IMG/VR virus record: IMGVR_UViG_3300015263_000627
DNA: 64,000 bases
From: a virus
Direction: 5' to 3' (one strand)
Numbering within the stretch: the first letter of the stretch is position 1; the number at the start of each line of letters is the position of its first letter. The translations under genes and the position numbers were made by a program. Positions 34,144 through 43,704 of the stretch are shown one piece after another. The notes under the pieces are model-generated. The model saw only the letters and a program-made list of their open reading frames with translations, searched no databases and had not been told where the DNA came from.

Positions 34144-34172
34144 TTGACACGACTAAATAGGTGTGATATAGT
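34144..34172 (+). promoter_or_regulatory. Sigma70 promoter
   Basis: TTGACA-17-TATAGT. Confidence 0.7.
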
Positions 34173-34428
34173 CTCTTTCGTAACTGGAAATAGGAACAAT
34201 GAACACAGGTTGTAAACATAGCAGAATATCACTCACGCAATTGCGTGATCGTGGCATTGCGCCATGTTTAGAATCTTGGTATAAGCCCTTCGGGCAAAAT
34301 ACCGAGTAAAATCCAGCAAGGTCCGCCTTGCTGGTTATCCGGCGAGGCTAAAAACGGACCAAATCCGTAAAAATCTCGCCAGATAAGTTATACGCAGATT
34401 ACAATTTGCGTATAATGCATTTTTTCGC

Positions 34429-34457
34429 TTGACATACAGGCGAGAGAATGTTATGAT
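34429..34457 (+). promoter_or_regulatory. Sigma70 promoter
   Basis: TTGACA-17-TATGAT. Confidence 0.7.
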
Positions 34458-34461
34458 GATA

Positions 34462-34580
34462 GGTTACGGGGTAAGTATAGCCCAACCGCTGGTAGTACGA
34501 TGGCGATAACTTTGCCATCCGGTAGGATTAGACGATGATCCTATTGTCCTTACGGGGTAAGTAAGGGGTGGTTTCGCTAG
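34462..34580 (+). ncRNA. Unassigned multibranch RNA with two GGGGUAA loops
   Basis: 14-nt repeat TTACGGGGTAAGTA at 34464 and 34550; aaccgc/gtggtt closes three hairpins. Confidence 0.5.
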
Positions 34581-34631
34581 GGGTTATTTTCATCATGGAT
34601 AAATCTTTATCCAAGGATTGAAAGAGTTTAT

Positions 34632-34752
34632 GGGGATGTAGCTTAAGGTGGTAAAGCATCTCAACATTTATTCTTCTAATGATATCGTAGAAGAACCGTC
34701 AGATATCGGGCGGTTGTTTAGAAAGATGAGGGTTCGACTCCCTCCATTCTCT
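34632..34752 (+). ncRNA. tRNA-like RNA with branched, expanded anticodon arm
   Basis: Acceptor ggggatg/cattctc, D arm gctt..aagc, T arm gaggg-ttcgact-ccctc; anticodon loop replaced by two hairpins. Confidence 0.65.
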
Positions 34753-34814
34753 GCCCATAGAGAAAGAACGAGGCGTCAGCACACGCCTACAATTCAATTC
34801 TTAGATAAAGATTT

Positions 34815-34889
34815 GCCACCGAAACATTGGTAGTGATGTACCGGTTTCGTAAACTGGAAAACCAAGTCCGACTCTTGGCGGTGGCTCCA
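34815..34889 (+). tRNA. tRNA-Thr(CGT)
   Basis: ccggt-ttCGTaa-actgg; gccaccg/cggtggc; CCA. Confidence 0.85.
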
Positions 34890-34965: not shown

Positions 34966-34971
34966 ATTCAT

Positions 34972-35046
34972 GCTCCCTTCTTCTATCAGCTAGGAACCCC
35001 GGCTTTCAACCGGGAAAAACCGGGGCAGCACCGGTAGGGAGTGCCA
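34972..35046 (+). tRNA. tRNA-Glu(TTC)
   Basis: cccgg-ctTTCaa-ccggg; T loop GGCAGCA; CCA. Confidence 0.85.
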
Positions 35047-35051
35047 ATAAC

Positions 35052-35217: not shown

Positions 35218-35291
35218 GTTTCATATCGTCTAACGGAGAGGACACCGCCCTTTTGCGGCGGGAATATGGGTTCGAGTCCCATTGTGATCTG
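35218..35291 (+). pseudogene. Degenerate tRNA (Glu-like body, TTT anticodon)
   Basis: ccgcc-ctTTTgc-ggcgg; mismatched acceptor stem; no CCA. Confidence 0.6.
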
Positions 35292-35418
35292 CAATTGATC
35301 GGTTTCAAATTAGGAGTTCCTGTAGCTATTACGTGGAACGAAATGCGGGCAGTTATAGCTTCCCCGGCTCCTAAAATGCGCTGGACCCGACGCGGTAAAA
35401 TATCGGGAACAAATTTAT

Positions 35419-35501
35419 GGGCAACTGGCATATGGAAACTGGTACACCTAACGGTTTTAGAAACCGCGCTTTTGAGAGTTCGAGTCTCTCGTTGCCTACC
35501 A
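35419..35501 (+). tRNA. tRNA-Leu(TAG)
   Basis: cggt-ttTAGaa-accg; long variable region; CCA. Confidence 0.85.
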
Positions 35502-35505
35502 ATAC

Positions 35506-35590
35506 GTGGCTGTGGGATAAGTTGAAATAGGAACACACAGCGGGCTTAAAATCCGTTCCTTTGCGAGTTCGAGTCTCGCCAGCCACACCA
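35506..35590 (+). tRNA. tRNA-Leu(TAA)
   Basis: gcggg-ctTAAaa-tccgt; CCA. Confidence 0.85.
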
Positions 35591-35595
35591 ATAAT

Positions 35596-35680
35596 GTCGT
35601 TGTGGGCTAATTCGAAATAGGCACACGTTACTGCCTCAAAAGCAGCGCCTTTGCGGGTTCGAATCCCGCCAACGACACCA
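35596..35680 (+). tRNA. tRNA-Leu(CAA)
   Basis: ctgc-ctCAAaa-gcag; CCA. Confidence 0.85.
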
Positions 35681-35684
35681 ATAA

Positions 35685-35848: not shown

Positions 35849-36722
35849 GGCGGTTTAGCGTCGTCAGGATAGCTTGGAGTGATCCAAGTTAAAGCTGTGT
35901 ATCCTATTAAACAGCGCCCGCAAGGGTCCATCTAAACAAGCCTAGTCGTCCCCGCGAGGGGCTATCAGGGATGATGGTAGTATATATGACGACAAGGTGT
36001 GGTCCGAAAGGATAGGGGTAAGCCTCTGCGAAAGCAAGCCCAACCTAATATCCCGCAAGGATAGCCACACATGCAAACTTGTCTAGTAGGTATCGACAAT
36101 AGGTAGTTACAGTAATCCGATGCTTCGCGGCAAAGGGTGGGTAGCATGATCTTCGGGAGAACGGACCCCGCTATTCGGAGGGGAGACGTATATCCTAGAG
36201 TCAGGTTGAGTAACTCGCAAGGTGAAAAACAGTTGGTGTGTTGTATTTTGTTTCCCAAAAGGAAGCGAAGCAACCGAACCAGCACATCAAAATAGGTTTA
36301 GAAAAAATGATCCATGGCGGATCATCTGCATATGAAGCAGAAAGGATTGGTTCGATTCCAATTTTTTTCACCAGAGAAAACGCAAAGTCTGGTTCGATGT
36401 TGATTGAGAAATGGTCTAAACCAATGGCGGCTTGCCGTAACATTGGCGATGAAGCCCCGCAAGGGTGAAGTTGTTATTTGATCGAATTATCCTAATGGGT
36501 TAGCGCCCATGAATAGCTCGCAAGGCTAAGGGTGAGATGATCGGTGAGTAGATCAACATGACAAGTGAAACGCTACACTTCAAAAAAAGCGACCTTGTTA
36601 CACTACATGCCGAAACGGTATGTGGATGAAAGGGAACCCTTATAGTGCGCTAGTCGCCGCACCCGAGCAGGGTGGGGGATAATCCTAGAAGGTGTAACGC
36701 TAAACCCTGTAGTCTCAAGGGT
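35849..36722 (+). ncRNA. GOLLD-like giant structured RNA
   Basis: ggtttagcgt (35852) pairs with acgctaaacc (36697); many GNRA-capped hairpins; size and tRNA-array context fit GOLLD. Confidence 0.68.
36301..36373 (+). tRNA. tRNA-like element inside the GOLLD-like RNA (anticodon ATG)
   Basis: gaaaaaa/ttttttc acceptor, tctgc-atATGaa-gcaga, attgg-ttcgatt-ccaat, ACCA. Confidence 0.6.
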
Positions 36723-40804: not shown

Positions 40805-41132
40805 TCGGAAGCGTAGATGATCGCGCTACGGTGAGGAAAGTCGGGTCTGCTAATACAACCGTAATGGGTAACGCCCATCCACAGTAATGTGAGGATTAGA
40901 GCTACAGGGACGATCCTATTAAGTTAGGGATGAAACGAGCAATCTCTACGGGCAGCAATCTCAAGTTCTCCGAAGGGTATGTATTCCCATCACTTAAATG
41001 TGTGTTAGGTAATGGTAGAGAGCAAAGACCTAAATGGAAACGTTTGGGCAAGTCAAATGATCGTCATATATTGATTATAATACGACCATTTCTATAATCA
41101 ATATGAACAGAAACCCGCTTATTCGCTTCCGA
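40805..41132 (+). ncRNA. rnpB: RNase P RNA (bacterial type, compact)
   Basis: P1 tcggaagcg/cgcttccga; CR-I GAGGAAAGTCGGG; gggtaacgccc (P8); TGAAACG; CR-V AACAGAAACCCGCTTAT. Confidence 0.88.
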
Positions 41133-41225
41133 GAAATACTTACCGGGATAAATACCATGTATATCCCGGCATGGCTCGTCCGGGATTTTTTATTTTAGAG
41201 CCATAATAATAAAGAGGTAAAATAC

Positions 41226-43089: not shown

Positions 43090-43704
43090 ATGGTTACGCT
43101 AATTGGTGACGTTCACGGCAAATATGGTGAATATAAACAAATTATAAAAAGGCATAAAAATTCTATTGCCTTGGGAGATATGGGACTTGGATTTTTCCGT
43201 TTTGATCATCATGAAGGGAAAATTCCAATGGCTAATCCTCCGTATGATTACATGGTGAAATATAATGCTCGATTTATTCGAGGCAACCATGATAATCCGG
43301 AAGTTTGTAAAAAACATACCCAATGGATACCGGATGGAACTATCGAAGGTGATATGTTCTTTCTTGGCGGGGCATTTTCAATAGATCATATGTATCGTCT
43401 TGAAGGGTATAGCTGGTGGAAAGATGAAGAATTGTCACATGAAGAATTTGACAAGATCATCGATCCCTACCGGAAAGCTAAACCAAGAATTGTGATAACT
43501 CATGATTGTCCTTTGCGGATGGTTCCTTATGTTGGTTCACACCATATTAGGGACAATTCGAGAACTCAACAATTCCTGCAATCATTGTTCGAGTTTCATC
43601 AACCCGAATATTGGTATTTTGGTCATCACCATAAGTCATGGAAGATGATTTCAGATAAAACAACATTCCGATGTTTAGCTGAACTTGAGACATTGGAAAT
43701 CTAA
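43090..43704 (+). CDS. Calcineurin-like metallophosphoesterase
   Basis: GDVHG, LGD.G, RGNHD, ITHDCP, FGHHH. Confidence 0.88.
   Translation: MVTLIGDVHGKYGEYKQIIKRHKNSIALGDMGLGFFRFDHHEGKIPMANPPYDYMVKYNARFIRGNHDNPEVCKKHTQWIPDGTIEGDMFFLGGAFSIDHMYRLEGYSWWKDEELSHEEFDKIIDPYRKAKPRIVITHDCPLRMVPYVGSHHIRDNSRTQQFLQSLFEFHQPEYWYFGHHHKSWKMISDKTTFRCLAELETLEI

Follow-up and report, generated by a model that had tools for sequence, protein, structure and literature searches.

A tRNA-shaped gene with two GAUAUCG-loop hairpins predicted in place of its anticodon loop in the RNA island of a large T4-like phage

What does a gene do that keeps the body of a tRNA and carries two hairpins where the anticodon loop should be? 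This question was raised by a 121-nt locus in IMG/VR virus record IMGVR_UViG_3300015263_000627, of which a stretch of 64,000 nucleotides was analyzed (here called the window). The source was an uncultured large T4-like phage with a contig of at least 181 kb, and the DNA runs that matched it were marine and other sediment metagenomes. Its gp61-type primase was 39% identical to that of T4-like cyanophages. The other proteins of the window included thymidylate synthase, ribonucleotide reductase, NAMPT and an exonuclease, and the ArdC-like neighbour proteins had counterparts at 55–80% identity.

The locus lies in an RNA island on the + strand (34.4–44.7 kb), where ARAGORN called 24 tRNAs and Rfam gave 23 matches; the two sets differed in part. 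GOLLD RNA was found 1.5 kb downstream of the tRNA-shaped gene, and a bacterial type A RNase P RNA was found inside the tRNA island (Table 1). A tRNA-shaped element with an AUG "anticodon" was embedded in GOLLD (36301–36373). Contigs from metatranscriptome libraries (runs X7 and X8) matched 35857–36367 at 100%, together with a tRNA-Lys fragment; their coverage thus comprised the 5′ region of GOLLD and this fragment, outside the tRNA-shaped gene. The island also contained a GIY-YIG homing-endonuclease-like gene, placed as segB is in the tRNA cluster of T4, and a calcineurin-type metallophosphoesterase gene (phrog_1649, 43090–43704). The calcineurin-type metallophosphoesterase fold heals RNA ends in some bacterial repair systems.

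Table 1. Features of the tRNA-shaped gene, its surroundings and the long tRNA-shaped loci used for comparison (window coordinates, except for loci L003 to L063).
Feature	Position	Strand	Details
tRNA-shaped gene	34632–34752	+	121 nt; RF00005, 42.6 bits, model positions 1–71; first gene of the tRNA cluster
Acceptor stem	34632–34638/34745–34751	+	GGGGAUG/CAUUCUC, 7 bp, G2.U71 and G4.U69
D arm	34641–34657	+	GCUU-AAGGUGGUA-AAGC
Anticodon stem extension, 5′ strand	34659–34666	+	UCU-C-AACA; pair probabilities 0.52–0.72
H1	34672–34694	+	7-bp A/U-rich stem, 9-nt loop AUGAUAUCG, GAUAUC at 34681–34686
H2	34695–34714	+	6-bp G/C-rich stem, 8-nt loop AGAUAUCG, GAUAUC at 34702–34707
Anticodon stem extension, 3′ strand	34715–34722	+	UGUU-U-AGA; pairs with 34659–34666
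Variable loop	34723–34727	+	AAGAU
T arm	34728–34744	+	GAGGG-UUCGACU-CCCUC
Discriminator U	34752	+	read from the sequence
3′ trailer without CCA	34753–34792	+	begins GCCCAUAG; hairpin AGGCGUCAGCACACGCCU at 34771–34788
Inverted repeat, 5′ arm	34601–34622	+	22 nt; pairs with 34793–34814
Inverted repeat, 3′ arm	34793–34814	+	22 nt; directly followed by tRNA-Thr(CGU), start at 34815
Predicted sigma-70-type promoter	34429–34457	+	TTGACA, 17 nt, TATGAT; TG before the −10; 11/12 consensus matches
Structured leader	34462–34580	+	two identical UUACGGGGUAAGUA hairpins; fold z = −3.9
GOLLD RNA	36231–36721	+	Rfam, 180 bits
Bacterial type A RNase P RNA	40805–41136	+	Rfam, 139 bits
Long tRNA-shaped locus L003	622–748	−	design 1
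Long tRNA-shaped locus L022			
Long tRNA-shaped locus L024			
Long tRNA-shaped locus L033	1062–1172		design 1 (Lys)
Long tRNA-shaped locus L041	35–132		design 1 (Lys)
Long tRNA-shaped locus L043	948–1055		design 1 (Thr)
Long tRNA-shaped locus L048	3807–3911		design 1 (Arg)
Long tRNA-shaped locus L050/L063			design 2
Long tRNA-shaped locus L052			design 2
Long tRNA-shaped locus L060			design 2

The tRNA body of the gene was complete. RF00005 matched it from end to end, well above the gathering score of 29 and inside the range of the ordinary tRNAs of the array (34–63 bits). All core contacts were present (U8, A14, A15/U48, G18G19, U54U55C56 and A58), so that both the cloverleaf and the conserved core bases of a canonical tRNA were found. 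Position 3:70 was a G-C pair, the wobble pairs being at 2:71 and 4:69, which is not the G3.U70 alanine type. Two other features of a canonical tRNA were absent. According to the Rfam tRNA alignment, 58 nt replaced the 11 nt that make up the inner two pairs and the loop of the anticodon stem, and no arrangement or single excision gave a 5-bp stem with a 7-nt loop containing U33 and a purine at position 37. The 3′ CCA was also not encoded. It was present in 21 of the 22 Rfam tRNA matches of the array, usually followed by AT or TT, and this gene was the sole exception: its 3′ end read U|GCCCAUAG. The base preceding the predicted RNase P site was U.

The default mode of ARAGORN missed the gene, and its relaxed mode gave a tRNA-Ala(GGC) at 34681–34752, which was rejected as a spurious call with a poor fold. 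No tmRNA was detected by ARAGORN, and neither tmRNA nor Y RNA (YrlA) was matched in Rfam. No close paralogue of the scaffold was found among the tRNAs of the array. An ARAGORN-called tRNA-Lys(UUU) at 35218–35292, which Rfam matched only in part (positions 3–68), also had no CCA and may be degenerate. Three tandem 89-nt tRNA-like genes with CCA ends were located at 35417–35684; by eye they had Leu anticodon loops (UAG, UAA, and CAA), with the extra length on the D-arm side and no long variable arm, and ARAGORN mislabelled or missed them.

With the cloverleaf enforced, the gene folded at −32.0 kcal/mol, compared with −33.2 kcal/mol unconstrained, and the fold gave a lengthened anticodon stem that leads to two hairpins, H1 and H2. 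The stem extension had one C.U mismatch; a 5-nt joiner precedes H1, and H2 directly adjoins both H1 and the stem extension. The pair probabilities of H1 were 0.99 for the five inner pairs and 0.75 and 0.54 for the end pairs, and those of H2 were 0.78–1.0. The insert alone folded at −15.9 kcal/mol, with a modest z of −2.3 against shuffles.

The stems of H1 and H2 were unrelated in sequence, and the 7-nt loop motif GAUAUCG was common to both. Identical loops on unrelated stems point to selection on the loops, the stems needing only to pair. The hexamer GATATC occurred 22 times in the window, compared with 21.8 expected by chance, and the + strand of the 64 kb had just four copies of GATATCG. Two GATATCG motifs 21 nt apart, both in hairpin loops, were estimated to arise by chance in roughly 1 of 100 cases, window-wide. 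No further copy of H1 or H2 was found within the window, and thus they were not copies of a dispersed repeat. H1, whose loop contains U-GAU-A, was also considered as an Ile-type anticodon arm and rejected, its loop being 9 nt long and the hairpin a side branch.

The self-complementary loops also raised the matter of loop-loop pairing, which the energies suggest is physically possible. The GAUAUC duplex was calculated at −4.2 kcal/mol, and the predicted homodimer gained −12.4 kcal/mol over two monomers. Being A/U-rich, GAUAUC would give only a weak contact if one pair of loops kissed alone. In a loop-loop helix of 6 bp the two stems are stacked end to end, an arrangement that is sterically unlikely within one molecule because H1 and H2 share a junction; any pairing would therefore be expected between molecules. 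The anatomy given in the original prediction held. The acceptor, D, and T arms were normal, as it had said; the minimum-energy fold with the cloverleaf enforced contained the stem extension UCU-C-AACA/UGUU-U-AGA and the two hairpins that it had described; and GAUAUC was found in both loops (GATATC at 34681 and 34702). Its proposal that the palindromic loops could kiss within or between molecules was kept for the second case and became doubtful for the first.

The surroundings of the gene were also distinctive. It was bracketed by a 22-nt inverted repeat whose arms form 20 Watson-Crick pairs of the 22, plus one G.U and one C.A. Such a repeat has 0 matches expected by chance; it was unique in the window, and no other tRNA of the array was flanked by a long local inverted repeat. 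The region 34596–34818 (223 nt), which is closed by this helix, folded at −75.4 kcal/mol (z = −5.6). A predicted promoter stood 175 nt upstream of the gene, one of four near-consensus promoters in the array, to all of which GCTTGACA was common. A transcript begun here would carry the leader, followed by the odd tRNA and the tRNAs downstream of it. The two leader hairpins (UAC-GGGGUAA-GUA) were 86 nt apart and formed a 14-nt repeat (D11) that was 100% identical. The one predicted transcript would thus have two different pairs of identical loops, those of the leader and those of the odd tRNA. A pattern search of the databases for the twin hairpins of the leader gave one chance match, in a coding repeat. 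A second near-consensus promoter was found at 34144–34172, with a terminator-like hairpin (34387–34416) ~215 nt later, which makes 34144–34416 a candidate small RNA unit. The start of this unit had an 18-nt motif (repeat D4) in common with the D side of the Leu-like tRNAs.

Searches for relatives of the gene started from DNA patterns, from proteins encoded nearby, and from a covariance model of its RNA (R1); no relative of the insert was found in GenBank phages, IMG/VR, JGI metagenomes or GTDB genomes. Neither blastn against GenBank phages nor a search for the exact insert in IMG/VR gave a homologue. A pattern of two GATATC followed by the T arm had 13 matches in IMG/VR, all by chance, in ordinary tRNAs or coding DNA. 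A pattern of D arm, long gap, and T arm was found at five loci in IMG/VR and 44 loci in the JGI metagenomes; many of these were long tRNA-like genes, none alignable with the insert. Model R1 scored 155 bits on the gene itself and at best 47 bits elsewhere, on the scaffold only. The neighbouring GH25-like protein, methionine aminopeptidase, and primase, used as anchors, led only to distant phages, where the tRNA matches were at most 85 nt long. A loose RNase P RNA-like pattern was found at 32 IMG/VR loci, which had ordinary tRNAs only and included no close relative of the phage; several of these loci were on contigs of 100–500 kb, with the pattern adjoining tRNAs.

In the GTDB genomes, the D arm had no match; the two matches of a looser pattern were of different isotypes, a tRNA-Trp and a tRNA-Asp, and thus gave the scaffold no single isotype. 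Two loci that resembled the scaffold in the variable loop AAGAU, T loop, and discriminator U (L027 and L053) were rejected because both are nuclear DNA of fungi; a HET-domain gene adjoins L027. A DNA contig from another study (run X2), the sole further DNA copy that spanned the gene, was identical across it and differed at one base of the 1,571 nt flanking it, a near-identity that is uninformative on selection; the DNA contigs of run X3 left 34458–34738 uncovered. In the otherwise near-identical X2 contig, a different 440-nt sequence stood in place of the 79 nt at 34971–35049, between tRNA-Thr(UGU) and tRNA-Thr(GGU); the tRNA array is thus polymorphic here for an insertion/deletion.

Long genes of this general shape were not rare. 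In the tRNA arrays of metagenomic phages, tRNA-shaped genes of 100–136 nt were common and often stood in runs of several. They shared with our gene a full scaffold, with 50–80 nt between the D and T arms, and several had no recoverable anticodon arm; their inserts could not be aligned with that of 34632–34752 (at most 47 bits, compared with the self score of 155). At least two designs were observed. In design 1, a canonical anticodon arm was accompanied by an extra arm of 45–58 nt that separates it from the D arm, at position 26/27; L003 is a His example by eye, with G-1 and C73. In design 2, which includes the gene studied here, no anticodon arm could be recovered, and it was sometimes replaced by a Y-shaped structure (L050/L063, L052, and L060).

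The nearest printed description of this poorly described kind of tRNA-shaped phage gene is that of the "enigmatic introns" in tRNA genes of the Lak megaphages (Devoto et al.; bioRxiv 10.1101/356790). The Lak inserts were placed by a tRNA finder in eukaryote mode, the genes have an assignable anticodon, and alleles without the insert set its boundaries (bioRxiv 10.1101/356790). Like these, the gene at 34632–34752 is an oversized tRNA gene of a large phage that bacterial finders miss, with a short insert absent from Rfam and no known mechanism of removal. In contrast to them, it yields no anticodon arm by excision, and no insert-free relative was found in the searches.

The T4-type phages themselves offer the species 1 and 2 RNAs (rnaC and rnaD), which are likewise small structured RNAs in a tRNA cluster but stand at its 3′ end and have no twin loops. 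The 3′ part of rnaC is T-arm-like and acceptor-like, and both RNAs fall below the Rfam tRNA threshold. No homology to either emerged: model R1 gave 19 bits (E = 0.03) on rnaC, covering the T arm and acceptor only, and had no match on rnaD. A likeness in architecture is found outside nature. In the engineered tRNA scaffolds of Ponchon and Dardel, the acceptor, D, and T arms are reportedly retained, and a structured foreign RNA, connected through the anticodon stem, takes the place of the anticodon loop, the product being processed and stabilized by tRNA enzymes. The architecture of the phage gene is the same; however, those scaffolds are laboratory constructs, whereas the phage gene is natural and has an extra flanking helix.

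The gene most likely cannot decode. Our preferred reading, to which we assign a probability of about 0.45, is that it specifies an RNA shaped like a tRNA but not used in decoding, a natural equivalent of the engineered "tRNA scaffold". Such a scaffold was favoured over an intron because no excision restores an anticodon arm, the CCA is absent, a 22-nt repeat brackets the gene, and one 7-mer is carried on two unrelated stems. In this RNA, transcription would probably begin at the strong early-type promoter at 34429, with the gene as the first tRNA-like unit of the operon. The intact tRNA core would then be recognized, trimmed, and stabilized by tRNA enzymes; these may include RNase P, for which the phage encodes its own RNA, as well as enzymes of 3′ trimming and T-loop modification. 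The flanking 22-bp helix may set the gene apart from the leader and tRNA-Thr; it could be a site of double-strand processing, or a clamp that protects the ends. A stem of roughly 9 bp would take the place of the anticodon loop and branch into the two hairpins that display GAUAUCG. We speculated that these twin loops are the working part: they might bind a partner that is bivalent or dimeric, or pair with one another across molecules. For self-pairing contacts of this kind, the GOLLD RNA of the same array offers a precedent.

A decayed or disabled tRNA gene is a somewhat doubtful alternative. An insertion or local duplication in the anticodon arm would have inactivated it, and the hairpins and twin loops would be functionless leftovers. 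The gene is indeed a singleton with no detectable relatives in the searched databases and has neither a canonical anticodon nor an encoded CCA, and a recent inactivation by insertion would give much the same appearance. The setting also agrees with decay, in that T4-type tRNA clusters are in flux, the array holds a GIY-YIG gene as T4 holds segB, and the CCA-less tRNA-Lys(UUU) looks degenerate as well. However, all conserved core positions survive, and the insert is well folded, with the same 7-mer in both loops, an arrangement estimated at about 1 in 100 by chance. Four clean pairs lengthen the anticodon stem, which a simple loop insertion would not do. The dedicated flanking helix and the near-consensus promoter also argue against decay, and the hairpins are not a repeated mobile element.

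An intron-bearing tRNA was judged unlikely. Here, a protein endonuclease would remove the extra 40–50 nt, and enzymes such as a T4-type Pnk and RNA ligase would join the halves into a working tRNA, which has been proposed for the Lak inserts. End-healing and sealing enzymes occur in T4-like phages; none was seen in the window, and the 30 window proteins scanned included no splicing endonuclease or RNA ligase. Each possible single excision of sequence lying between the D and T arms was evaluated for whether it left an arm of 17 nt that has U33 and a purine at position 37. The strict form (5-bp stem and 7-nt loop) gave no solution for this gene. It recovered clean anticodon arms in L033, L041, L043, and L048, indicating that the test works. 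A lenient form accepting at least four of the five stem pairs gave five poor solutions, with 4-of-5-bp stems made from insert sequence and "variable loops" of 11–13 nt. The intron mode of ARAGORN did yield a Gly(ACC) with a 30-nt intron at position 32/33, but in this solution a C.C pair is required, U33 is missing from the loop, and the variable arm, 23 nt long, is unstructured.

The known kinds of intron did not fit either. A bulge-helix-bulge motif was absent, since the UCU-C-AACA/UGUU-U-AGA helix is continuous and has no 3-nt bulges. Neither a group I intron (RF00028) nor any other ribozyme was matched, tRNA being the only Rfam match at E up to 5, and the insert is ~47 nt long compared with ~200 nt or more for the group I catalytic core. 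The CCA that the working tRNAs of the array encode is missing here, which also speaks against a spliced tRNA. On the other side, tRNA-Ala and tRNA-Ile(GAU) were absent from the array by anticodon reading, and a missing isoacceptor could hide in this gene; huge phages have also been recorded with tRNA genes that contain short, unexplained inserts (bioRxiv 10.1101/356790). The original prediction had left the choice between a display scaffold and an unusual intron. The scaffold fits the sequence better, and the intron lost ground as no excision restored the arm, no CCA was encoded, and neither a bulge-helix-bulge nor a group I intron was present.

A self-assembling RNA on a tRNA chassis, in which the GAUAUC loops, once the RNA is processed like a tRNA, pair between molecules to give dimers, rings or chains, appears improbable. 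Such an RNA might work alongside the cage RNA GOLLD, or titrate a host factor that binds tRNA. The phi29 pRNA and the HIV-1 dimerisation hairpin assemble by loop-loop contacts. In GOLLD, "self-interacting kissing-loop interactions" join the cage halves (bioRxiv 10.1101/2024.12.08.627333), which is a precedent for self-pairing contacts in RNAs of phage tRNA islands. The GOLLD and ROOL nanocages, the phi29 pRNA, and the HIV-1 hairpin all use self- or mutually complementary loops as contacts between molecules; however, they have no sequence or structural relation to the gene at 34632–34752, for whose RNA multimerisation is only predicted thermodynamically. Finally, it is very improbable that the two GATATC(G) palindromes are DNA-level sites for a dimeric protein, methylase or endonuclease in an incidental tRNA-like context: both are short palindromes, lie 21 bp or two helical turns apart on the same helix face, and occur in a window that encodes DNA methyltransferase-like proteins, but GATATC is neither avoided nor enriched there, the sites are within a putatively transcribed RNA gene and not at a promoter, and DNA binding leaves unexplained why each falls exactly in an RNA hairpin loop on an unrelated stem.

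Standard finders overlook or mislabel many tRNA-shaped genes of large phages; the name "enigmatic introns" has been given to a few, and for none has a function been demonstrated. The gene described here is an unusually clear case, with a perfect tRNA core, no recoverable anticodon, and one palindromic loop displayed twice. If its RNA is stable and unspliced, then phages reached the laboratory "tRNA scaffold" trick, and corrections are due wherever such genes have entered phage tRNA counts or codon-usage arguments. If the RNA is spliced, there would be a protein-dependent tRNA splicing route in a bacterial virus. Self-assembly, if true, would be a natural case of tRNA-based RNA assembly via loop contacts.
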